DNA of 32,000 bases from Prochlorococcus marinus str. NATL2A (GCF_000012465.1 NC_007335.2:360001-392000); one strand, 5' to 3'. Positions 4,262 to 29,877 are shown, numbered from the stretch's first letter. Notes: generated by a model from the letters alone, not told the origin. Program-made: numbers and translations.

Positions 4262-4906
4262 TTATGTGGTCTCCAGTGGGGAAATTATAATTTCTTCAGA
4301 ATCGATTCTTGCTTGTTCTGCAAGACCAAATTGAGGCTTCTCCTTAGGACCTCTAGCAACTTTATTAGCGATTCTTAGTTGAACAGGGCTAAGTTGAAGT
4401 GCGGATATTTTTGCTTTAGAGTTTCCTTTGTTGCCTGCATGAGCAATCCCAAGTAATCTTCCCCAAATAATTATATTTCCCTCTGCGCTAACATTTGCCC
4501 CTGGATTAACATCTCCAAGGATTAACAAATCCCCAGGACTTTCAATATATTCTCCTGACCTGACAGTTCCTTGATGAAAGTGAGTTTTTAAAAAAGTTGG
4601 ATTTCTCTTGTTTATCTCTGAGGTATTTTTTGAAGAACTTTCAATAAATTGAGATTTATAACCTAGTGATTGAGAGCTTACAATCGTCTTTGGAGATGAT
4701 GAGCAAAAACAAATAATCTTACAATTATATTGATTCGCAATTTCAATGATTTCTGATATCTCTTTACATGAAAGATCGATATTTTCAGCATCTATTTCTA
4801 AATTATTTGACTTAAGTGTATTTAATTTATTTTTTAAATCTATTTTCCAATTAGGATAGTTTCTACCCTCTATATTGATTATTATTTTTTGACTTTTTGA
4901 ATTCAT
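4262..4906 (-). CDS. minC: Septum site-determining protein MinC
   Basis: Upstream of minDE. The C-terminal beta-helix region (GDVNPGANVSAEGNIIIWGRLLGIAHAG) is typical of MinC. Confidence 0.85.
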   Translation of the reverse strand: MNSKSQKIIINIEGRNYPNWKIDLKNKLNTLKSNNLEIDAENIDLSCKEISEIIEIANQYNCKIICFCSSSPKTIVSSQSLGYKSQFIESSSKNTSEINKRNPTFLKTHFHQGTVRSGEYIESPGDLLILGDVNPGANVSAEGNIIIWGRLLGIAHAGNKGNSKAKISALQLSPVQLRIANKVARGPKEKPQFGLAEQARIDSEEIIISPLETT

Positions 4907-4908
4907 TT

Positions 4909-6168
4909 CTAATTGTGTTTCATTTTTAGGTTCTCAATTTCTATTTTTAATTCAATTTCTATTTCTTTTGGATAAATCAACCATGAAGATTGATTAGGCT
5001 GAATTAATCTATCAACTAATGGTGAAACTCTCTCTAGAGCTTGTAACTTATCTCCGTCCCATAAACGAAGTCCATGTTTATAAGGATGGTAACTTTTCAC
5101 TACTTGTTCTCTTAATCCACAGGATATATCTGGCTCAAGGTAATATTTTTCAGATAGTTTTCTAGCTTTTGCTAGAGATTCTAGTCTCGTCTCTAAAGTA
5201 AAGGAGGATATATTTAGTGCTTTTAATAAATTTCTATGTATAAAGCGCTTACAGAGATTAGATAGATTGTTGGAACTACAATCTTGCCATTTATGGATAT
5301 GATATCCAGTTACTGTGTCATCATTAGATAAAAAACTTTCTAGGCTCATTTTTTCATGATTCCAAAGCCATTCAGACATGCTTTTATCTGCCCATAAGCT
5401 TTGTGGCCCAATTTTTCTTGCTGTTTTTATAATTTGCTCTAATAACCAATTACAAACTTCATTTAATCGATGATTGTACACGCTTCTATACATTAGATTC
5501 CTTATAACTAAATAATGCTCAACTGCCATTAATCCTTTTGGGTGTATTGCTAAATCTCCATCAGGTGAAATTGTCATTGCTGAAATTATCCGGTCTATAT
5601 CTAACTGACCATATCTTGCCCCAGTTGTATAACTATCTCTCATTAAATAATCAAGTCGATCACAGTCTAGCTGACTACTAATTAACGAAATTATTGATTT
5701 TTTTTCAGCTTTTCCCGATTGAATTAAATCTGAAATTGCTTTTGCATTTCCTTTCCCATATTTATTAAGTATCGTAGTTATTTCTTTACATGAATTTATT
5801 AATTTAGCGGTCCAATATTCATGTTTTATCTTGAAAATTTCCTCACTTGTGTGACTGAGTGGTCCATGACCTAGATCATGTAAAAGCGCAGCACCATAAA
5901 TAATGAATTTATGCTCTTTTAATCCAGAATCAATACTTAATAAATGATTGATCGCTCTTCTTGCCAGATGAAATACACCAAGAGAATGAGTGAACCTGCT
6001 TGATTCTGCACCATGAAATGTCAAGTAAGCAGGACCTAACTGTTTGATTCTTCGTAACCTTTGAAATGGGGAGGAATCTATTAATTCCATCACCATTTTT
6101 TCCTCTGGAATCGAACTATTTAATGTAATGGATTGATGAAGAGGGTCGTAATAAGTTCGTGACGACAT
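4909..6168 (-). CDS. HD-domain metal-dependent phosphohydrolase (dNTP triphosphohydrolase-like)
   Basis: HD motifs RFTHSLGV and ALLHDLGHGPLSH, plus DCDRLDYLMRDS, which is typical of SAMHD1/dGTPase-like HD proteins. Confidence 0.85.
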   Translation of the reverse strand: MSSRTYYDPLHQSITLNSSIPEEKMVMELIDSSPFQRLRRIKQLGPAYLTFHGAESSRFTHSLGVFHLARRAINHLLSIDSGLKEHKFIIYGAALLHDLGHGPLSHTSEEIFKIKHEYWTAKLINSCKEITTILNKYGKGNAKAISDLIQSGKAEKKSIISLISSQLDCDRLDYLMRDSYTTGARYGQLDIDRIISAMTISPDGDLAIHPKGLMAVEHYLVIRNLMYRSVYNHRLNEVCNWLLEQIIKTARKIGPQSLWADKSMSEWLWNHEKMSLESFLSNDDTVTGYHIHKWQDCSSNNLSNLCKRFIHRNLLKALNISSFTLETRLESLAKARKLSEKYYLEPDISCGLREQVVKSYHPYKHGLRLWDGDKLQALERVSPLVDRLIQPNQSSWLIYPKEIEIELKIEIENLKMKHN

Positions 6169-21320: not shown

Positions 21321-22070
21321 ATGACTAACAAGTTTATTATTAGTAAATATTTTAGTTATGTAATAATAATTTTCTTCGTTGTTATTTTAAGTATTACTTT
21401 TATTCACTTGGATGTTAATATTATTGCTGATTTCTTTTATGATATTGTTAGCAGTTTAAATACGAATAACTTTTTCAGCTTAATATTAATTTTCTTATTA
21501 TTTATATTAAGATCCACTAGTATCATAATACCAGTTTTACCTGGAACAATATTTTCCGCTGCTGCTGGGTTTCAGTTTGGCTTTACGCAGGGGTTAGTTA
21601 TTATATTTTTTGCAGATTTTTTCTCTTGTTCAATATCATTTTTATTGGCTAGAAAATTAGGAAGAAAATTTATTACTAGATTACTTGGTTCAAGACAAAT
21701 GAGAAGAGTTGAAAGCATTAGTCAAGATTATCTAGAAAATAATTATTTCCTTATGACAGCTCTTTTGATGTCAGGGTTCTTTGATTTTGTTTGCTATGCC
21801 ATAGGACTGACAAAAATAACATGGAAAAGGTTTATGCCTGCTTTAATTTTTAGCATAATAATCTCAGATTCACCCTTTGTCGCCAGCGGTGTTGCCGCAA
21901 GAAAAATCAAGGATATTGGATTAAAAAATTTTTTACAAAAAATATTAAATGGAGAATTAGATACGATTTCTGGAAATTATCTTTTTCTATTCATAACATC
22001 GTTTTTAATAATATTTAGTTTGGCAATGATAAATATATATTTACAAAAAAGACCTAATATTATTAAGTAA
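21321..22070 (+). CDS. TVP38/TMEM64 (DedA-related, SNARE-associated) family membrane protein
   Basis: 249 aa and polytopic. The block PVLPGTIFSAAAGFQFGFTQGLVIIFFADFFSCSISFLLARKLGR resembles the TVP38/DedA core. Confidence 0.7.
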   Translation: MTNKFIISKYFSYVIIIFFVVILSITFIHLDVNIIADFFYDIVSSLNTNNFFSLILIFLLFILRSTSIIIPVLPGTIFSAAAGFQFGFTQGLVIIFFADFFSCSISFLLARKLGRKFITRLLGSRQMRRVESISQDYLENNYFLMTALLMSGFFDFVCYAIGLTKITWKRFMPALIFSIIISDSPFVASGVAARKIKDIGLKNFLQKILNGELDTISGNYLFLFITSFLIIFSLAMINIYLQKRPNIIK

Positions 22071-22080
22071 TTTATTGGTT

Positions 22081-22108
22081 AAAAAAAGCCCCTTCAGGGG
22101 CTTTTTTT
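22081..22108. terminator. Bidirectional intrinsic terminator
   Basis: A7-GCCCC-TTCA-GGGGC-T7, perfectly symmetric, between the convergent genes ending at 22070 (+) and 22125 (-). Confidence 0.75.
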
Positions 22109-22124
22109 GATTTGGTTATAGCTG

Positions 22125-22226
22125 CTAGCTTTGGTAAGACTTACCTCTATAGGTAAGTTGTACATGCTGCTTTTCTACAGCTGCTTTTTGCTGATTGTAC
22201 TTAAGACCTCTGTAGGTTAAAGACAT
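22125..22226 (-). CDS. Small DUF4278-like protein (YRG repeat, 33 aa)
   Basis: Hand-found ORF MSLTYRGLKYNQQKAAVEKQHVQLTYRGKSYQS with GGAG 8 nt upstream of the ATG. The twice-repeated TYRG motif is the hallmark I recall for cyanobacterial DUF4278. Confidence 0.6.
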   Translation of the reverse strand: MSLTYRGLKYNQQKAAVEKQHVQLTYRGKSYQS

Positions 22227-22487
22227 TTTTTTTCTCCGAAATATGCTCAAGTCCCCGTTCCTTGGCCTGAGTCAAACTGCGGCTCATCATTTGATGAGTT
22301 GAACGTTTTTTGTAGTTTTCGCTACACAATAATCATAAGCCTATTATCCTTTCCTCGGTGTTCAGCTTGTTACATAAAGCTTATTGTCCTTGCTGAAGTG
22401 AACTTTCTAAATTCTTATGATCTGTGACAGTTGAAAAACTTTACTGCTTGTTGCTTTCATTGGTATTAATCAACTTAATATTTATAT

Positions 22488-22579
22488 GTGAGGAGTTGAG
22501 ATCCTCCGCAGTGGAAACAAGGAAACACTTGCGACTGATCTCACAAAAAACCGCCTTGTTCAGAACGGGCGGTTTTTTT
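22488..22579 (+). ncRNA. yfr2: Yfr2-family sRNA (copy 1)
   Basis: GTGAGGAGTTGAGATCCTCCGCAGTGGAAACAAGGAAACACTTGCG... carries two GGAAACA motifs. It ends in the intrinsic terminator CCGCCTTGTTCAGAACGGGCGG-T7. A near-identical paralog lies at 26964. Confidence 0.8.
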
Positions 22580-22586
22580 GTGCCTA

Positions 22587-22889
22587 TTAATGCTCGTATC
22601 CAATATTGTTTTCAGGATTAGTAATAAAGAGAATCATTTGAAAGACTAGGTTTGAAGGTAATGAAATTTTTTTAAGAAGCAAAAGAGTTATGCCCTGCGT
22701 CACATTGAACTTCTCCTTCTTCTTAATCATGTCTTTTCTCCCAAAATTTATACATGTTGGAGAATTGTTTGCTCCTTTCAACAATAAAGGCATAAGAAGA
22801 ATTTGCCTCCTTTTGGTCATTAGGAATTTCTTCTGATGCAGACCCTTTGTGGATTTGATTAGAAAGTCAAAAGCAGAACAACTCCTCAT
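22587..22889 (-). CDS. Doubtful hypothetical ORF (100 aa, lysine/leucine rich)
   Basis: Open frame only. No SD and no recognisable family. Its 5' end overlaps the hairpin sRNA candidate on the other strand. Could be a chance ORF. Confidence 0.25.
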   Translation of the reverse strand: MRSCSAFDFLIKSTKGLHQKKFLMTKRRQILLMPLLLKGANNSPTCINFGRKDMIKKKEKFNVTQGITLLLLKKISLPSNLVFQMILFITNPENNIGYEH

Positions 22890-22952
22890 ACAATTCGTTC
22901 TGCAAATGAAGAGAGGGACTCAAGGTCGCTGATGCAGTAGGGTCCCTTTCTT
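22873..22952 (+). ncRNA. Yfr1-like hairpin sRNA variant (loop AACUCCUCAUAC)
   Basis: The 7-bp stem GCAGAAC/GTTCTGC encloses a 17-nt loop containing ACTCCTCATAC. A second hairpin AGGGAC/GTCCCT is followed by TTTCTT. Paralog of 26833..26892, with compensatory closing-pair change. Confidence 0.45.
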
Positions 22953-22989
22953 AATGCAATTAAAATGAGTTAAATCAATCTCATTTGTA

Positions 22990-23388
22990 GTGAGTATCTC
23001 CTGAATAAGATTGAGTTCCTATCTCTGATGGTGGATTATTGCCGAAGTCATCAACTAAGGCATCTGCTTCACTAGTGAAAAGTTTAGAAAACCATTGTCT
23101 AGCTCAATGATTGCAGTCCAACCTTTGTCTCTTTTTCTAGTCATAGAGATACCTCGTAGGAAGTAAGAGAGTGTTTGTTTGCCCCCTTCGAGTCCATCAG
23201 CCTTGGCATTGAACTAATTTACTAGTGTTCTCATTTTTACTCCTCTTAAGTGGACATCGATAGGGCTGAGGCCACCAAAGTATTTCTACGTTTTGGTTGG
23301 CTTCGTAGATCTTTTTTGGTAAGTGTAGATGTAAATCAAGATTCATAGCACTCTTGAAGATATAAAAAGGCAGATCTGTTAATGACAC
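22990..23388 (-). pseudogene. Possible degraded coding region (several short frames that can be joined by frameshifts)
   Basis: Three short minus-strand frames abut each other in different frames. They are the 63-aa GTG ORF 23197..23388, the fragment ...LEGGKQTLSYFLRGISMTRKRDKGWTAIIELDNGF..., and the fragment ...QWFSKLFTSEADALVDDFGNNPPSEIGTQSYSGDTHYK. No family recognised. Confidence 0.25.
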
Positions 23389-23596
23389 TAGGGAGAAATC
23401 TCACACCTCCTCATGTGAACAGAGAAAACTTTTTGTTCGGTCTCTGCAACGGTCCGAACAACCCCAACCTCTGATTCATTTCAGGAGTTTTTCTTTATGA
23501 GGCCAATGAGAGTTAATACTTTAGGGCTTTTATCCTATAGATATTTTCAATTAAGAGGAGTAGATATAAATCAAAGCACTATTAGGAGGTTAAACC

Positions 23597-23782
23597 ATGA
23601 CATGCGGCAATCCTTTTAAACATGCAATCGAAGACGTAAAGGAAACATTCTCGAAATCTTGTGGGGTTCCTATCCAGGGGAACGATTGGTGTGGTCTGGT
23701 TTCTAATTATGAAACTGATTTTGATGAGGTCGATTACGAGAATGAGTGTTTGCAGTTTGGTATCTGCTCAATGGACTACTAA
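23597..23782 (+). CDS. Small acidic cysteine-rich protein (61 aa), unknown function
   Basis: MTCGNPFKHAIEDVKETFSKSCGVPIQGNDWCGLVSNYETDFDEVDYENECLQFGICSMDY. A strong SD AGGAGGT (23584-23590) lies 6 nt upstream of the ATG. Contains 5 Cys. Confidence 0.55.
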   Translation: MTCGNPFKHAIEDVKETFSKSCGVPIQGNDWCGLVSNYETDFDEVDYENECLQFGICSMDY

Positions 23783-23809
23783 AAAATCCAACTAACAGGA
23801 GGTCTAATT

Positions 23810-23944
23810 ATGCCAGCAACCCGTAGTTTCAGATCTAATGGATCGAATCCCCTTTCATCAGTCTTTCTTTGGTTTTCTGTTCTTTTGATCTCGCTTGGAA
23901 TGCTTCCACACTTAATTCCTTATTACTTTCAGTTGAAATATTGA
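23810..23944 (+). CDS. Small membrane peptide (44 aa), unknown function
   Basis: Hand-found ORF MPATRSFRSNGSNPLSSVFLWFSVLLISLGMLPHLIPYYFQLKY. It has the identical SD geometry, AGGAGGT (23797-23803) then 6 nt then ATG. One TM helix. Confidence 0.45.
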   Translation: MPATRSFRSNGSNPLSSVFLWFSVLLISLGMLPHLIPYYFQLKY

Positions 23945-24150
23945 GGTCACAAGAATGATTCTCGATCTTCTCAAACTAATCCTCAGAAAGCACAAAGATT
24001 ATTGGATCGTTGGTTAAACAGGAGTTTTTTCTCATGTTCACCTGATCTGAATTTGTTAGAAATGAATTAGGAGTTCTAGCACTTCCGATCCAGTAGATGG
24101 TTGCTTAGTCAGGGTGGAAAGTTCAGATGGATAGAAAAGTGCTGAACTCA

Positions 24151-24182
24151 AAAGGGGCGACCAAAATCTCGCCCCTTCTTTA
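24151..24182 (+). terminator. Intrinsic terminator closing the small-ORF locus
   Basis: AAGGGGCGA-CCAAAATC-TCGCCCCTT followed by CTTT. Confidence 0.6.
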
Positions 24183-24200
24183 ATGGGAAAAACCAGTCGC

Positions 24201-24228
24201 TTGACTAACCAATACTAATTAGTATATT
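24201..24228 (+). promoter_or_regulatory. Near-consensus promoter overlapped by a 14-bp perfect palindrome
   Basis: TTGACT (24201-24206), a 16-nt spacer, then TATATT (24223-24228). The palindrome ATACTAATTAGTAT (24212-24225) spans the spacer and the -10. Confidence 0.45.
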
Positions 24229-24234
24229 TGTATT

Positions 24235-24293
24235 AGTCGAATCCCCGTCGCAAAAGGCAAAGAAACCACCTGCTCGCTGGTGGTTTCTTTTTT
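24235..24293 (+). ncRNA. Candidate ~60-nt sRNA or terminating leader
   Basis: The predicted TSS is about 7 nt after the -10. A perfect 10-bp stem AGAAACCACC/GGTGGTTTCT with an 8-nt loop is followed by a T-run ending at 24293, 15 nt before the next ATG. Confidence 0.4.
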
Positions 24294-24307
24294 CTTTAAT
24301 TAGGAGA

Positions 24308-24583
24308 ATGAACCAACCAGTAAGAGAAGTATTGCCAACTCCAGCAGGATGGTTGGTCGCACCTGCCAGAGACTTTTGTTTGTTTTTTATTCGTGACCCT
24401 AAATCTGTCATGGTTGCACCGACTGTCTTAACTCAACTTTGGTATTGCACCGAACAAGGTATCCCAATCCAATTGAAAAATACAAGAAGACTGGACTATG
24501 AATCTGCACATGAAACTTGGAATGAACTGCTATCTAATGATTGGGAATTAGTTGAACATCAGATTAATGATGCAGCTGCCTAG
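24308..24583 (+). CDS. Hypothetical protein, DUF1651-like (marine picocyanobacterial family)
   Basis: 91 aa. The pattern GWL...RRLDYESAHETWNELLSNDWELVEH resembles my recollection of DUF1651. The start is uncertain because AGGAG is only 1 nt from the ATG. Confidence 0.55.
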   Translation: MNQPVREVLPTPAGWLVAPARDFCLFFIRDPKSVMVAPTVLTQLWYCTEQGIPIQLKNTRRLDYESAHETWNELLSNDWELVEHQINDAAA

Positions 24584-24814
24584 CGGGAACATTGACCTAG
24601 GAATATCGCGACTAGGTGCAAGAATATCTACCTATTACTTGACCCTGCTATTTAATTTCGATACCTTCGCAGCTTGACATCTTTGATTGACACTAATCGA
24701 ATATATATCCGATGAGACGACTTGCTAAATTTTTTTAAGGGAGTACTAGATCTGTTGAAAGTCTATTTTTTAGTGCTTTTTATCCACTCGTAAATTCACT
24801 TCCTATTTGTTCAA

Positions 24815-25264
24815 ATGCCTCAAATTACACATCCTGATTCACTGAGTTGCTCCGATCATATACATTTTAGAAAATTGTCTTCTGATTCACAGCAGCTAGA
24901 AGCTCTTATACAAAGTTTTGCAGACAGGTCTCAAAACAAAACATTTTTACTAGCCAACACCACAAATGATTTCTTGGCTATCAGACCAAGTTGTAACCCA
25001 ATAATCGCGAAGGGTCTTGCAGGAATGTATGACAGTGATGATTTGGTTATTGAACTTTCCGAATTAGTCAAGATTCATCGGCTTGAGGCTGATTCTGATT
25101 GGGGCTTTACTGCATTTACCTTGAAAGAGGTGTTTAGCTACAAAGGTGACCTGAATAATGATTTATCTATTTATTCATTGATTTTCAAGAAAATTGATGG
25201 CATATGGAAGATTGTATGGATGCAAAGATCACAAGGAACTACGGATATTTCAACGTGGGACTAA
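24815..25264 (+). CDS. Hypothetical protein, possibly NTF2/SnoaL-like fold
   Basis: 149-aa ORF. The C-terminal beta-rich segment LIFKKIDGIWKIVWMQRSQG is reminiscent of SnoaL/DUF4440 proteins. The functional assignment is weak. Confidence 0.5.
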   Translation: MPQITHPDSLSCSDHIHFRKLSSDSQQLEALIQSFADRSQNKTFLLANTTNDFLAIRPSCNPIIAKGLAGMYDSDDLVIELSELVKIHRLEADSDWGFTAFTLKEVFSYKGDLNNDLSIYSLIFKKIDGIWKIVWMQRSQGTTDISTWD

Positions 25265-25297
25265 CTGATACAACAGCTTCTGAAAGTGATATGGCTT

Positions 25298-25657
25298 TTA
25301 TTTCTTGAATTTTAGAAGCTGTTTAATAACGGCTTTAACACTAAAAATCCATCTACCAGCTCGTGAAGAAGAAGTGAGGGATTTAGTTAAAAGTTCTATT
25401 TGTTCTTGTCTCTCTTTGTATTTAATTTCCAGTTCGGTTTTTGCAATAGCAAGGCTTTGAGTTTGAATTGGGCAATCATTTTCTTTATCCCAGTTATCGA
25501 TATTTGCTTCTAATTCATATATGTCCATAGTTCTGTACTTACTGATAAGTGTTTGTAAATTATCAGGTTCGAAACTCATGAAAAGTGACTTATTTGGCCT
25601 AGATTTGATTATCGAAATATAGCCTCTAAACAAAATATCAATGGTGGGTAAACTCAC
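25298..25657 (-). CDS. Hypothetical protein (coiled-coil-like)
   Basis: 119-aa ORF. The internal start MSFEPDNL is possible. No family recognised. Confidence 0.4.
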   Translation of the reverse strand: MSLPTIDILFRGYISIIKSRPNKSLFMSFEPDNLQTLISKYRTMDIYELEANIDNWDKENDCPIQTQSLAIAKTELEIKYKERQEQIELLTKSLTSSSRAGRWIFSVKAVIKQLLKFKK

Positions 25658-25850
25658 TCGTGTTCGGGCTATTTATACTTATTAGAGTCATCAATAGATC
25701 TAATCATTGAATAAATATCTCTCCAATCAGTTGCTGTCATTAGTGTTTAAGACTTATTTTTATTGATTATTAGAAGAAGCCGTACCCGACCGTATCTTTG
25801 CGCTACAAAGTTAATACTTTACATTTGTTCACATCAACGCAATTCCAGTA

Positions 25851-26066
25851 ATGACAACTTCTTCCAACGCAGCTTCTTCTCAGGTAATCACTGAGTACGG
25901 CAAGCAAAACATCTTTGGCCGTGAAACACAGCCACAGCTTGTAGAGGACTACACCAGCTATCCAGAAGAAGCTGAGAAGACAAATGGCCGTTGGGCAATG
26001 ATCGGGATGGTCAGCCTTTTGGTTTCATACTTCACAACAGGTCAAATCATTCCTGGAATTTTCTAA
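25851..26066 (+). CDS. hli: High-light-inducible protein (HLIP, one-helix CAB-like)
   Basis: The C-terminal AEKTNGRWAMIGMVSLLVSYFTTGQIIPGIF contains the ExxNGRxAM chlorophyll-binding motif plus a TM helix. Confidence 0.9.
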   Translation: MTTSSNAASSQVITEYGKQNIFGRETQPQLVEDYTSYPEEAEKTNGRWAMIGMVSLLVSYFTTGQIIPGIF

Positions 26067-26100
26067 ACCAATAACTACTAATAAGTAACTATTAAAAACA

Positions 26101-26220
26101 ATGCAACCATCTAACAAAACAATCCTAGAAAGAAGCATCGGCAGACCAGCCATGATGGCATTCGTTCTTCTAACAGGTATCTACCTAACAACCGGTCAAC
26201 TTATCCCAGGTGTTGTTTAA
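26101..26220 (+). CDS. hli: High-light-inducible protein (39 aa, variant motif)
   Basis: Hand-found ORF MQPSNKTILERSIGRPAMMAFVLLTGIYLTTGQLIPGVV. Confidence 0.8.
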   Translation: MQPSNKTILERSIGRPAMMAFVLLTGIYLTTGQLIPGVV

Positions 26221-26366
26221 TGAAAAACCAAACGACTGAAACTCCAAGAGTAGAAGAAGGCAAAGTCATTGCAGAAAGACTCAATGGCCTAGCTGCATCC
26301 ATTGGCTGTTTAGCCCTTGTTGGTGCATATCTAACAACAGGTCAAATTATCCCAGGTGTTGTTTAA
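26220..26366 (+). CDS. hli: High-light-inducible protein (48 aa, variant motif)
   Basis: Hand-found ORF MKNQTTETPRVEEGKVIAERLNGLAASIGCLALVGAYLTTGQIIPGVV. Its ATG overlaps the previous TAA (TAATG). Confidence 0.8.
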   Translation: MKNQTTETPRVEEGKVIAERLNGLAASIGCLALVGAYLTTGQIIPGVV

Positions 26367-26515
26367 TGACTACTCAAAACAACAACAACAGAAGAAACAT
26401 TGATCCTGAAAAGGTAACTGCAGAAAGACTTAACGGCTATGCAGCATTGTTTGGATGCATTGCTCTAGTTGGTGCTTATGCAACAACAGGTCAAATCATT
26501 CCAGGTTTCGTGTGA
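26366..26515 (+). CDS. hli: High-light-inducible protein (49 aa, variant motif)
   Basis: Hand-found ORF MTTQNNNNRRNIDPEKVTAERLNGYAALFGCIALVGAYATTGQIIPGFV, with a TAATG overlap with the previous gene. Confidence 0.8.
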   Translation: MTTQNNNNRRNIDPEKVTAERLNGYAALFGCIALVGAYATTGQIIPGFV

Positions 26516-26640
26516 TGAACAAAGAAACTAACTACTGGAAAACAGCCGAGCAAATGAATGGCCGCCTTGCGATGATGGGCTTCTTTGCGGCTGTGATTAA
26601 CTACGGATTAACAGGCTGGATCATCCCAGGAATTGTGTAG
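26515..26640 (+). CDS. hli: High-light-inducible protein (41 aa)
   Basis: MNKETNYWKTAEQMNGRLAMMGFFAAVINYGLTGWIIPGIV, with a TGATG overlap with the previous gene. The track ORF 26455..26640 is the same frame extended upstream. Confidence 0.9.
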   Translation: MNKETNYWKTAEQMNGRLAMMGFFAAVINYGLTGWIIPGIV

Positions 26641-26661
26641 TCCTACCTTTCAAATCAAATA

Positions 26662-26706
26662 AAAAAAAGGCCTCTTCTATGTCATTACGGAAGGGGCATT
26701 TTTTTT
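26662..26706 (+). terminator. Intrinsic terminator of the hli array
   Basis: GCCTCTTC (26670-26677) pairs with GAAGGGGC (26890 is not involved; partner is 26690-26697) and is followed by T8. Confidence 0.65.
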
Positions 26707-26832
26707 GCTTTTAATTTTACTGAATGATCGTGTTTATATAACATGCCCTTTTTGGAACACCAATTTTTGACAATATTTAAGAGATTATTTTTGTTGTTGC
26801 CATCTTGACCTCGGGTGTATCAGAATAGTTAT

Positions 26833-26892
26833 ACAGAACAACTCCTCACACATAGTTCTGTGCCGAAAGAGCATCCAATTGGGTGCTTTTTT
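26833..26892 (+). ncRNA. yfr1: Yfr1-signature sRNA (exact ACUCCUCACAC motif)
   Basis: The stem ACAGAAC/GTTCTGT encloses a 15-nt loop with ACTCCTCACAC (26841-26851). The terminator AGCATCC-AATT-GGGTGCT-T6 follows. TTGACC lies about 30 nt upstream. Confidence 0.65.
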
Positions 26893-26963
26893 AGTGCCTG
26901 TGCCAATCAATAAACCCTCCTATTAGGGGTTTATTCCTAAGCCTGTTCAGATAAATTCATTTT

Positions 26964-27056
26964 GTGAGGAGTTGAGATCCTCCGTAGTGGAAACAAGGAA
27001 ACACTTACGCCTGATCTCACGAAGAACCCGCCCTAGCAGAACTGGGCGGTTTTTTT
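26964..27056 (+). ncRNA. yfr2: Yfr2-family sRNA (copy 2)
   Basis: GTGAGGAGTTGAGATCCTCCGTAGTGGAAACAAGGAAACACTTACG... carries two GGAAACA motifs. The terminator is CCCGCCC-TAGCAGAACT-GGGCGG-T7. Confidence 0.8.
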
Positions 27057-27078
27057 GTGCCTTTCTTAAAGTGGTCTA

Positions 27079-27192
27079 ATGATATTTCCACCCCCACAAG
27101 TTGTTTTTGGCCTTTTGCTTTTAAGCATTGCAGCGACTTTGATTTTTAATGTCAGATACAACCCCTTCGTAAACAGTGAAGATGATATCTAA
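27079..27192 (+). CDS. Hypothetical small membrane protein (37 aa)
   Basis: Hand-found ORF MIFPPPQVVFGLLLLSIAATLIFNVRYNPFVNSEDDI. No SD and no family recognised. Confidence 0.3.
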   Translation: MIFPPPQVVFGLLLLSIAATLIFNVRYNPFVNSEDDI

Positions 27193-27276
27193 TACAGCAA
27201 TACATTCGCCTTAAAAAAAGATACCTTTTGGGTCCTATTGATTGCGATTAAATCTCTTTGATGTCCCTCCGACGAT

Positions 27277-27291
27277 GCCCTCGTCGGGACC
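27277..27291 (-). repeat. 15-nt exact copy of the 3' end of tRNA-Thr(GGU) (att-like scar)
   Basis: TGCCCTCGTCGGGAC at 27277-27291 is identical to 29806-29820, the 3' acceptor/T-stem end of the tRNA, and in the same orientation. Confidence 0.6.
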
Positions 27292-27663
27292 ACCACTCAC
27301 AACACCTGATAGTGCCTGACAAGAGTTGGTAACTGGAAAGTCGATATTTTTAGAAAATGTCCAACTTATGTACAACTTTTTTAGAAAAAATTAAGGGGTG
27401 GCATTAAAAAAAAAGATTAGACATTAGTAGGTCATATGAAATTAATGATTGGACATTTATTTGTATGCCGTTTTTTTGGATTAAAGGACATAACCAAATT
27501 GGATGACCTCAATCAAGTAGTTGATTGGCAAAATAGTTCGTTTTATCAAGCAACTAATCAATCATCTAGCGTTATTAGTTAAGTATCAATAATCTCAGGA
27601 AGAGGTCAAACTGGCACTTGTAGTATTAGTAGAATTACTTCATACACAAGTTCTTAGAAAATA

Positions 27664-29415
27664 ATGGAATCCAGTGATAAAGATCAAGGGAAAAAGAATA
27701 TACCTAAAATCCAAACATTTACTGTTCCATTTGCTTTAGGTGAAATCCAAGAAAATATAACTATTACTACTAATACTCCCGCTAAACCATCTAAACCATC
27801 TAAACCATCTAAACCATCTAAACCATCTAAACCATCTAAAGAACAAATAATTAATCAAGCAATTCAGTTTCATCTACGAGGTAATATTCCAGAAGCAATA
27901 AAATATTATGAATATTTAATACAGCAAGGTTTCAAGAACCACAATGTTTTTTCTAATTATGGACTCATATTGAAAGATCTAGGAAAATTAAAAGAAGCAG
28001 AAATATCAACACGCAAAGCAATTGAACTCAATCCCAATTACGCAATAGCATTTTCAAATCTGGGAACGATATTGAAAGATCTTGGAAACTTACAAGAAGC
28101 AGAAGTATCCACTCGTAAAGCAATTGAACTCAATACTAATTACGCAGAGGCATATTTAAATCTGGGAACGATATTGAAAGATCTTGGAAACTTAAAAGAA
28201 GCAGAAATATCAACACGCAAAGCAATTGAACTCAATCCCAATTCCGCAATGGCATTTTCAAATCTGGGAACCATATTTATAGATCTTGGAAACTTACAAG
28301 AAGCAGAAGTATCCACTCGTAAAGCAATTGAACTCGATCCCAATTACGCAGAGGCATATTCAAATCTAGGAAATATATTGAAAGATCTTGGCAACTTACA
28401 AGAAGCTGAATTATCACTCCGCAAAGCAATTGAAATCAATCCTGATTTCGCAGAGGCATATTCCAATCTTTCATTATTAGAACTTCTAAAAGGAAATTAT
28501 GAATCTGGTTTAGAAAACTATGAGTTTAGATCTCAAACCAAAAAACCTGCTATTACTCACGCAAATATAAAACTAAAAAAAATCAATAATGAAAAATTAG
28601 ACAAAGGAAACAAACTTTTAGTTGTTAGCGAACAAGGTTTAGGCGATACGCTTCAATATATGCGATACATACCTTACCTACGAAAAAAAGATTTTGATAT
28701 TTCTTTTTGTGCTCAAACAAAACTACATTCATTGATCCAATCATCATGTATTGATCTAAATCCATTAACTCCAGAACAAGCAAGCTTAGTGTCAGAAGGT
28801 GAATGGGTTCCATTATTATCTTTACCTAAATATTTAAAAGTAAGGCCAGAAAATCCAATCGTTTCTGAGCCATATATTTCATCAAATGATGAATTAAATA
28901 AAAAGTGGAAAGACATTCTATCTAAAGAGAAAAGACCCATCATTGGTATTAATTGGCAAGGAAGTCCAGAAATAGAAAAAAGCGTTTATCAAGGACGTTC
29001 AATTCCTTTAGACATATTCTCAATCCTTCTTAAAGAAAATGATATAACAATGCTTTCTTTACAAAAAGGATTTGGTTCAGAACAATTAAATGATTGTTCA
29101 TTTAAAAATGAGTTTGTTGAATGCCAACCACAAATTGATGCGACTTGGGATTTTCTTGAAAATGCTGCCATTATTGAAAACTGTGATTTGATTATTACTT
29201 GTGATACTTCAATTGCTCACTTAGCTGGAGGAATGGGAAAGAAAGTTTGGTTACTGCTAAAAGATATTCCTTTTTGGACTTGGGGACTTGAAAGGGAGAA
29301 TACATTTTGGTATCCATCGATGAAATTATTTCGACAAAAAGAGCGACATAATTGGCAAGAGGTTATGGATAGAGTATCAATCGCAATTACAAAAGAAATG
29401 AAAAAAAATGACTAA
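27664..29415 (+). CDS. TPR-repeat protein fused to a glycosyltransferase family 9 (heptosyltransferase-like) domain
   Basis: 583 aa. The N-terminus has a (PSK)6 linker. It is followed by about 7 TPR units (AIELNPNYAEAYSNLGxILKDLGNLxEAE). The C-terminal half has the GT9-like EQGLGDTLQYMRY and TCDTSIAHLAGGMGK. Confidence 0.85.
   Translation: MESSDKDQGKKNIPKIQTFTVPFALGEIQENITITTNTPAKPSKPSKPSKPSKPSKPSKEQIINQAIQFHLRGNIPEAIKYYEYLIQQGFKNHNVFSNYGLILKDLGKLKEAEISTRKAIELNPNYAIAFSNLGTILKDLGNLQEAEVSTRKAIELNTNYAEAYLNLGTILKDLGNLKEAEISTRKAIELNPNSAMAFSNLGTIFIDLGNLQEAEVSTRKAIELDPNYAEAYSNLGNILKDLGNLQEAELSLRKAIEINPDFAEAYSNLSLLELLKGNYESGLENYEFRSQTKKPAITHANIKLKKINNEKLDKGNKLLVVSEQGLGDTLQYMRYIPYLRKKDFDISFCAQTKLHSLIQSSCIDLNPLTPEQASLVSEGEWVPLLSLPKYLKVRPENPIVSEPYISSNDELNKKWKDILSKEKRPIIGINWQGSPEIEKSVYQGRSIPLDIFSILLKENDITMLSLQKGFGSEQLNDCSFKNEFVECQPQIDATWDFLENAAIIENCDLIITCDTSIAHLAGGMGKKVWLLLKDIPFWTWGLERENTFWYPSMKLFRQKERHNWQEVMDRVSIAITKEMKKND
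27784..27837 (+). repeat. Perfect 9-bp tandem repeat x6 (AAACCATCT) encoding (KPS)6
   Basis: Read directly from the sequence. It is in frame within the TPR/GT9 gene. Confidence 0.95.
27994..28401 (+). repeat. Near-identical 204-bp tandem duplication (two TPR units per copy)
   Basis: 27994-28197 and 28198-28401 differ at only a handful of positions. A third, more diverged unit starts at 28402. Confidence 0.9.
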
Positions 29416-29782
29416 AAAATTGAAATCCTTATCTTCTATTCTCGCTCCAGTCTCTTTAGGAGAATTAATCGATAAAATCACGATTCTAGAAATCAAACAA
29501 ATACATATGACTGGAATAAAATTAAAAAATGTAGATAAAGAACTAAAACTACTAAGAAAAATACTTCAAGATGAAAATTTGGAAATTGATATCGATTTAA
29601 TTAATAATCTCAAAGAAGTAAACAATAACCTTTGGGAAATAGAAGATAAAATAAGGATAAAAGAGAGCAATCAAAAATTTGACAAAGAATTTATTCAAAT
29701 CGCTAGATCAGTTTACAAAGAAAATGATAAGAGAGCTTCTATAAAAAAAAGACCCCATTCAGGGGTCTTTGACTCTACTTAG
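29408..29782 (+). CDS. Small conserved protein, DUF6165-like (often next to TPR/glycosyltransferase genes)
   Basis: 124 aa. APVSLGELIDKITILEIK...NLWEIEDKIR...ARSVYKENDKRASIKK matches my recollection of that family. It overlaps the upstream stop by 8 nt, suggesting translational coupling. Confidence 0.6.
   Translation: MTKKLKSLSSILAPVSLGELIDKITILEIKQIHMTGIKLKNVDKELKLLRKILQDENLEIDIDLINNLKEVNNNLWEIEDKIRIKESNQKFDKEFIQIARSVYKENDKRASIKKRPHSGVFDST
29743..29770 (-). terminator. Intrinsic terminator of the tRNA-Tyr/tRNA-Thr transcription unit
   Basis: On the minus strand, AAAGACCCC-TGAAT-GGGGTC is followed by T8. It lies 36 nt downstream of the tRNA-Thr 3' end. Confidence 0.6.
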
Positions 29783-29805
29783 GTGCTCTTGGTAGAGGGT
29801 CTGAG

Positions 29806-29877
<72 letters not shown>

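Follow-up and report, generated by a model that had tools for sequence, protein, structure and literature searches.

A Yfr10-like–Yfr2 small RNA cassette of low-light type in a mosaic island of Prochlorococcus

Described cassettes and the elements of the window

The closest described systems come from Prochlorococcus MED4, where copies of the Yfr1 motif were reported 150–160 nt upstream of Yfr2 and 128–138 nt upstream of Yfr5, the motif of Yfr1 itself lying in a 16–20-nt unpaired linker between two stem-loops (Voss 2007, PMC2190773). Steglich 2008 (PMC2518516) placed Yfr10, Yfr12 and Yfr18 directly adjacent to Yfr2, Yfr4 and Yfr5, respectively, mapped a 270-nt precursor comprising Yfr10 and Yfr2, located this pair in genomic island 1 and proposed base pairing between its members; in Yfr12, a C-to-U change keeps the pairing to Yfr2 through G-U. 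Working in the same strain, Lambrecht 2019 (PMC6778093) found Yfr1 and Yfr10 enriched with Yfr2 in a CRAFD-Seq pull-down, relief of Yfr1-mediated repression by Yfr2 in a GFP reporter, and blockage of RNase E cleavage of Yfr2 upon binding of Yfr1 or Yfr10, and also reported Yfr10 homologs upstream of Yfr2 in HL strains and a Yfr10-like RNA of SS120 seen by northern blot (Fig. S6). The first-pass annotation had held that such an arrangement was not described as a unit, a claim that these three studies overturn, as they report it in MED4. What the stretch of DNA analyzed here (32 kb, hereafter the window) contributes is a low-light-clade (LLI) example of the Yfr10–Yfr2 cassette already known from the 2007–2019 literature, with nothing conceptually new.

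The window resembles the MED4 cassettes (Yfr10–Yfr2, and also Yfr12–Yfr4 and Yfr18–Yfr5) in that a Yfr2-family gene is preceded, 100–200 nt upstream on the same strand, by a terminator-bearing hairpin sRNA with the motif in its loop, in that a CGRE1 element (putative in the window) lies between the genes, and in its island location. In both, the loop can form ~11 bp with the 5' end of Yfr2, and both have a degenerate C-to-U variant, Yfr12 in MED4 and the B-type copy in the window. They differ in four respects: the window elements are of LL type and fall below the RF02362 gathering score; their duplex has 11 perfect bp in a shifted register (CAA/UUG), whereas a C is bulged in the 11-bp duplex of MED4; the closing pair of the stem is C-G in the window and A-U in MED4; and the B-type copy lies downstream of Yfr2, with an A–Yfr2–B triad in relatives. 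The individual elements are as follows:

22423–22433, strand unspecified: CGRE1-like proximal half-site TGTGACAGTTG of Yfr2a, proposed from an alignment of 70 Yfr2 promoters and the literature description; distal half degenerate
22488–22579, + strand: Yfr2a, Cyano-1 family sRNA (Rfam RF01701, 64.8 bits)
22873–22952, + strand: Yfr10-like sRNA gene, type B, with degenerate motif ACTCCTCATAC (model R1, 41.0 bits; Rfam Yfr10, 27.5 bits; fold z −4.0)
26797–26826, + strand: putative promoter of Yfr10-like A, TTGCCA-18-CAGAAT from a consensus scan; the −10 ends 7 nt before 26833
26833–26892, + strand: Yfr10-like sRNA gene, type A (model R1, 64.2 bits; Rfam RF02362, 25.1 bits; MFE fold z −5.24)
26899–26935, strand unspecified: putative Yfr2b upstream control region, comprising a degenerate CGRE1-like half-site TGTGCCAATC (26899–26908) and a palindrome (26908–26935)
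26964–27056, + strand: Yfr2b, Cyano-1 family sRNA (Rfam RF01701, 60.4 bits)

The loop and closing base of hairpin A, CAACTCCTCAC at 26839–26849, are the exact reverse complement of GTGAGGAGTTG at 26964–26974, where Yfr2b starts, and the sequence thus reads as first described, with a hairpin loop perfectly complementary over 11 nt to the 5' end of the adjacent Yfr2. At the upstream set, GTGAGGAGTTG at 22488–22498 and CAACTCCTCAT at 22879–22889 allow 10 Watson-Crick pairs plus one G-U. Searching the window for the 11-mer with at most one mismatch recovered four sites, which are exactly the four elements (expected 0.32), and four sites were reached in 0 of 100 shuffles; the 8-mer ACTCCTCA led to the same four sites against an expectation of 0.95. 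These complementary segments are unpaired in the predicted folds of all four RNAs, that is, of the two hairpin RNAs and the two Yfr2. The initial description of two Yfr2-family genes, each with a neighboring hairpin-plus-terminator element that bears the Yfr1 motif and each pair capable of an 11-bp duplex, is borne out as well.

Hairpin A consists of a 7-bp stem (ACAGAAC at 26833–26839, GTTCTGT at 26855–26861) and a 15-nt loop, AACTCCTCACACATA, which holds the exact 11-mer motif ACTCCTCACAC at 26841–26851. The intrinsic terminator that follows (26870–26887, AGCATCC-AATT-GGGTGCT, then T6) places the end of the gene near 26892 and folds with 12 predicted pairs, a G-C-rich core of seven with an A-U/G-U extension, before U6. 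The −10 element is imperfect (CAGAAT), and its position aligns with TAGAAA in loci L084 and L109. Syntenic type A orthologs were recovered in L084 (MIT 1012), L145, L146 and L137. From the end of type A to the start of Yfr2b, on the same strand, the gap is 70–71 nt. Small ORFs that run over the hairpins (26815–26913 on the + strand, 26785–26910 and 22587–22889 on the − strand) were dismissed as mechanical ORFs across conserved RNA structure.

Both Yfr2 genes match RF01701 over its full length (1–69/69, at 22482–22546 and 26958–27022), well beyond the gathering score of 41. Their nucleotides 1–9, with the (GU)nGAGGAG motif, are unpaired in MFE folds, the first helix carries the GGAAACAAGGAAACAC loop, and a terminator with a U-run closes the gene; Yfr2b specifically has a single-stranded 5' GUGAGGAGU, the conserved loop GGAAACAAGGAAACAC, a terminator T-run at 27050–27056 and a −10 TAAATT at 26952–26957. 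The hairpin RNAs fold with z-scores of −5.2 and −4.0, the Yfr2 copies with −2.6 and −3.5. The two copies (22487–22579 and 26963–27055) are 83% identical over 93 nt, the similarity ending at the gene ends, and their inner stem shows a compensatory C-G to U-A change (CCGCAG...CUUGCG versus CCGUAG...CUUACG). The site of Yfr2a, with a glutamine-II riboswitch/DUF4278 gene in divergent orientation, is conserved and recurs in L056, L077 and L142 (MIT 0916). In the window, this riboswitch (67 bits) lies at 22125–22308 on the − strand, upstream of a 41-aa DUF4278 ORF.

Family identity of the hairpins

The window was searched against Rfam; Cyano-1 was recovered twice above threshold, while Yfr1 gave no match at the gathering score, nor up to E = 10 in 21500–28500. 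The only cyanobacterial Rfam family to match the hairpins in a permissive search (E up to 10) was Yfr10 (RF02362), with two matches that are full-length though sub-threshold: 27.5 bits at 22872–22962 and 25.1 bits at 26832–26902 (E 0.7 and 2.2 in 7 kb), against a gathering score of 43. MFE folds of both elements place the motif in the first hairpin, within its loop, and not in a linker between two stem-loops. The Yfr10 consensus, AUCAGAaACUCCUCACACAC...UUUCUGAU followed by a terminator, has the same architecture as the window hairpins, and both types A and B carry the motif (ACUCCUCACAC, with one transition in B) in a 5' hairpin loop that precedes a terminator.

These observations bear directly on the original reading of the hairpins as yfr1 copies. 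Extra copies of canonical Yfr1 that moved into the island would explain the 11-nt ultraconserved motif ACUCCUCACAC that they have in common, and Yfr1 further shares the complementarity to Yfr2 and, in MED4, has targets that overlap with those of Yfr10. Nevertheless, this reading is so improbable that we abandon it: the Yfr1 family does not appear among the Rfam matches up to E = 10, its motif occupies a 16–20-nt unpaired linker (PMC2190773) rather than the loop of the first hairpin, and Yfr1 is a single-copy gene at a conserved guaB–trxA site, whereas neither guaB nor trxA was noticed among the ORFs listed beside the hairpins (hli genes, DUF3804, DUF1651 and a TPR protein). Because the curated gathering score is not reached, we file the window RNAs as Yfr10-like and not as RF02362 members; by sequence and predicted fold, they are low-light-type relatives of Yfr10, "Yfr10-like" in the loose sense of Lambrecht 2019.

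For wider comparison, a covariance model, R1, was built from seven LL-type elements, all from other genomes and none from the window. Against the window, R1 scores 64.2 bits for type A (E 5.6e-12) and 41.0 bits for type B (E 5.7e-7), and nothing else exceeds 20 bits; it also matches HL elements at 33–45 bits (E 1e-6 to 6e-4 in 556 kb). All nine HL loci checked with Rfam are Yfr10 at 53–100 bits, each directly upstream of a Cyano-1. The structure is conserved at the level of the family: across 53 R1 matches, the cells are paired in 97.7% of cases and each of the 16 pairs varies on both sides, in an alignment fitted to the model, which leans by construction towards the model's structure. This model-guided alignment was used in place of a MAFFT alignment of the HL and LL elements, which mis-registered stem 1, so that RNAalifold recovered the terminator only. 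Covariation of the stem is seen across 48 homologs, and in the raw sequences, the stems differ by lineage yet pair (CAGAAC/GUUCUG, GGAC/GUCC, CGAC/GUCG, CGAG/CUCG and UCAGAAA/UUUCUGA).

The SS120 Yfr10-like RNA is a further low-light-clade RNA with the Yfr1 motif. Its published probe target (GTCCAATAGGGCGCTGCTCGT) closely resembles the L135/L104-type elements, which lie 123–176 nt upstream of a Yfr2 core. It differs from the window RNAs in its shorter stem (GGAC/GUCC), its 9-bp Yfr2 duplex and its clade, LLII/III. Core genes of the window are ~85% identical to MIT 0916 and to single-cell genomes, and the cassette is ~80% identical to MIT 1012; both strains belong to LLI, which points to LLI-type Prochlorococcus as the source. 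The Yfr10–Yfr2 cassette reaches into the low-light LLI clade in a form missed by Rfam Yfr10 at its gathering score, and the elements reported here can help with annotation and with extending the Yfr10 model to a wider range of sequences.

Adjacency, pairing and proposed regulation

Scanning GTDB representative genomes for the Yfr2 loop core recovered at least 120 loci, of which 70 are Yfr2 genes, nearly all from Prochlorococcus; the counts are those of a sample in which every locus was chosen for the exact Yfr2 core. Among the matches listed, and with the two from the window counted, CTCCTCA occurs on the same strand 100–260 nt upstream of the Yfr2 core at 43 of 71 Yfr2 loci, against a background of 0.0066 per interval of that size, an adjacency ~90-fold above chance. 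The proportion varies with Yfr2 subtype among these matches: the upstream motif is present at 32/36 loci of the GUGUGUAGGAG HLa-type and 11/23 of the GUGAGGAG LL-type, the exact motif being missing at the other 12 LL-type loci, and at 0/11 of the GUGUGAAGGAG HLb Yfr3-like genes. The absence of an upstream Yfr10 from these 11 HL loci fits the partner-less Yfr3 of MED4. Approached from the hairpin side, all 48 genuine R1 matches in 556 kb adjoin a Yfr2: 42 sit 0–400 nt upstream of it, four downstream, and two belong to the multi-copy array of L146. The enrichment of hairpin–Yfr2 adjacency beyond chance, posed at the outset as one of the checks, is thus evident, and since a lack of such enrichment is clearly not what we find, the cassette is real and the adjacency no local accident.

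Phage-borne copies were not supported in three scans of viral contigs: the 24 matches to the Yfr2 core included none that was Yfr2-like, and among at least 130 loci matching the LL and HL hairpin 15/16-mers, none listed had a matching 3' arm.

The duplex of the LL-type cassettes comprises 11 perfect bp at −20.5 kcal/mol and is identical in seven of them (the window and six others, L084 being LLI MIT 1012), with a register in which loop CAA pairs with Yfr2 UUG; the HL cassette duplex has 11 bp with a bulged C at −16.9 kcal/mol. Complementarity is therefore retained in LLI and is even cleaner than in HL strains. Duplexes between loops and Yfr2 of different lineages range from −16.6 to −17.4 kcal/mol, and because these values are close to the cognate HL value, cognate specificity is weak. 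Cofolding yields a gain of −9.8 kcal/mol. Full-length duplex prediction gave meaningless long intermolecular structures, and cofolding and short-segment duplexes were used for these comparisons.

We consider it likely that Yfr2 and the Yfr10-type RNAs titrate each other as in MED4, with Yfr2 expression set via CGRE1 and with proximity or occasional read-through favoring the duplex; for the LLI clade, we infer transcription, the direction of regulation and binding of the regulator by analogy with MED4. Each Yfr10-type RNA would be a ~60–80-nt transcript from its own −10 element, with a 7-bp 5' hairpin whose loop, ahead of the intrinsic terminator, would present the Yfr1 motif ACUCCUCA[C/U]AC, an anti-Shine-Dalgarno-like sequence. 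Yfr2 would begin with the complementary unpaired GUGAGGAGUUG, and the binding of Yfr10-like A to Yfr2b is predicted to be sensitive to mutation of CAACUCCUCAC. Once seated on the loop, Yfr2 would keep the Yfr10-type RNA (and Yfr1) off its mRNA targets, and the same binding may shield Yfr2 from RNase E cleavage. A GntR-type regulator at CGRE1 between the two genes would set Yfr2 transcription, while the placement of the genes 70 nt apart on one strand would make for co-localised synthesis and, upon terminator read-through, for a joint precursor that could pair in cis. The principle that one small RNA controls the availability of another is shared with enterobacterial sRNA sponge pairs, but the Yfr10/Yfr2 antagonism is a direct base pairing of two trans-acting sRNAs with side-by-side genes. 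GlmY, by comparison, acts as a protein decoy and not by pairing. The GlmY/GlmZ pair was cited by Steglich 2008 (PMC2518516).

Weak cognate specificity also invites another explanation, in which the Yfr10-like RNAs are ordinary trans-acting sRNAs for mRNAs with Shine-Dalgarno-like GGAG sites, their match to Yfr2 and their adjacency being by-products of one ancestral duplication and joint travel in islands, with no sponge relation in this clade. The motif is an anti-Shine-Dalgarno sequence, and since it would pair just as well with any Shine-Dalgarno-like target, selection is not specific to the Yfr2 pairing; the hundreds of mRNA targets of Yfr10 and Yfr1 belong mostly to one sRNA or the other and not to both (Lambrecht 2019, PMC6778093), and cross-lineage and cognate duplexes hardly differ in energy. 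About half of the LL-type Yfr2 genes among the matches listed have no partner, and the type A body was lost cleanly from L109, which retains Yfr2, so that the partner RNA is dispensable. Against this stand the ~90-fold adjacency among the matches listed, the orientation and spacing kept across HL and LL despite turnover of stems, terminators and spacers, the extension of the LL-type duplex to 11 perfect bp through loop CAA and Yfr2 UUG, and the direct binding and functional antagonism demonstrated in MED4 (PMC6778093). On this evidence we hold an account by mRNA targets alone to be unlikely, and mutual titration remains our preferred reading. At L109 (2840–3070, AG-311-D23), the promoter and CAGAAC run straight into the pre-Yfr2 spacer, and the promoter, the CGRE1-like element and Yfr2 are kept, making it a natural knockout of the partner RNA.

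The precursor raises a further alternative, namely that the hairpin is a cis-acting 5' leader of a longer Yfr10–Yfr2 transcript, whose loop covers the RNase E site and the seed at the 5' end of Yfr2 until processing. In the predicted structure of a 224-nt read-through RNA (−77.9 kcal/mol, z −5.1), the motif pairs in cis with the 5' end of Yfr2; a 270-nt precursor is known in MED4 (PMC2518516), and the two genes lie on the same strand with a 70-nt gap. Yet a strong terminator separates the two elements, Yfr2b comes with a −10 of its own and, at the conserved distance, a CGRE1-like element, no leader is needed for the function of Yfr2a and many other Yfr2 genes, and the B-type copy lies downstream of Yfr2, all of which make a leader role highly improbable compared with two RNAs that act in trans.

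According to Lambrecht 2018, CGRE1 is a palindrome, CAAC-N13/14-GTTG, located ~55 nt or more upstream of the TSS; the Discussion of PMC6191309 adds flanking GTTG/GTTA and the GntR-type regulator PMM1637. The consensus used here was reconstructed from that Discussion text together with our own promoter alignment. At Yfr2b, TGTGCCAATC starts 7 nt past the T-run of the Yfr10-like A terminator and, with 3 mismatches, occupies the position (−65 to −56) of TGTGACAGTT, the element conserved across 70 Yfr2 promoters in the alignment. The CGRE1-like proximal half is perfect at Yfr2a and degenerate at Yfr2b, both at the conserved distance, and we take the TGTGACAGTT-type element between type A and Yfr2b to correspond probably to CGRE1, the GntR-type PMM1637 site. 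The distal half of this putative Yfr2b CGRE1 would fall on the type A terminator tail, as reported for MED4 yfr5/yfr18; PMC6191309 describes a comparable half-site truncated by the upstream terminator at yfr5. The stretch from the type A terminator to the Yfr2b −10 also contains a near-perfect 9+9-nt palindrome, AATAAACCC-N9-GGGTTTATT (26908–26935), which differs from the CGRE1 consensus and shows partial conservation in L109, L113 and L080.

The type B gene and its island setting

The same two element types had been described as recurring 4 kb upstream in reversed order. Both are indeed present, 4.4 kb upstream and with the 10 bp plus G-U given above, but they are not the same cassette flipped: Yfr2a sits at its conserved site, and the hairpin at 22873 matches a degenerate B-type copy that follows Yfr2 in each of three clade-LLI relatives. 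Type B has a hairpin at 22873–22903 with a 17-nt loop, a −10 element TAGAAA at 22860–22865, and a terminator (GGGAC...GTCCC, then TTTCTT) that is longer than that of type A; its degenerate motif, ACUCCUCAUAC, is one transition from ACUCCUCACAC, as in Yfr12. It lies 293 nt downstream of Yfr2a, and so lacks the upstream-of-Yfr2 position of Yfr10. The orthologs in the relatives (L084:5335–5417, L145:2132–2212 and L146:4390–4471) are all downstream of a Yfr2; in MIT 1012, L145 and L146 they carry CUCCUUACA, ~180 nt downstream of Yfr2 in an A–Yfr2–B triad. Both B-type C-to-U changes, that of the window and that of L084/L145/L146, preserve the pairing to Yfr2 via G-U.

The equivalents of window positions 27193 and 22819 are contiguous in L084, L145 and L146, whereas in the window they lie 4.4 kb apart with five hli genes between them. 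Three blocks that precede the tRNA pair in the window, at 22761–24110, 24588–27214 and 27290–29806, have no counterpart in L056. That the sRNA pairs lie inside a variable island, as originally stated, is correct for most of the region, which is a mosaic island; Yfr2a is the exception, being at its conserved edge. The cassette genes thus sit in this mosaic island beside hli genes, and the Yfr network is linked to carbon/nitrogen balance and light stress. Tentatively, and with more doubt than confidence, we suggest that the unit in clade LLI may be, instead of a pair, an A–Yfr2–B triad or an extended alternating array like that of L146, that the sRNA genes may mark, and perhaps mediate, recombination junctions of island cargo (hli), and that co-evolution may have given the duplex a register particular to each lineage (perfect over 11 bp in LLI versus bulged in HL).

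Several further observations concern the island and its relatives. The array of L146 (52–6163, AG-402-I20) comprises four or more Yfr10-like genes (52–125, 4390–4471, 4836–4909 and 5468–5545) and two Yfr2 copies (4644–4751 and a degenerate one at 6071–6163), all within 6 kb of a single strand. Yfr2a and the tRNA pair of L056 are no more than about 0.9 kb apart, and L077 has the tRNA pair twice (2173–2337 and 5899–6063) around ~3.6 kb, which looks like an integration footprint. Directly upstream of Yfr10-like A, at 25851–26640 on the + strand, five short hli-type ORFs are arranged in tandem; they have a TGQIIPG C-terminal motif and are built on repeat families D1/D2 with a period of ~146–154 nt. 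Beyond the cassette, window positions 27664–29415 (+) encode a 583-aa protein, absent from L056, that begins with a PSK repeat, continues with ~5 TPR units and at its C-terminus weakly resembles glycosyltransferase 9; it is followed by a DUF6165 ORF at 29408–29782, island cargo that L056 likewise lacks.
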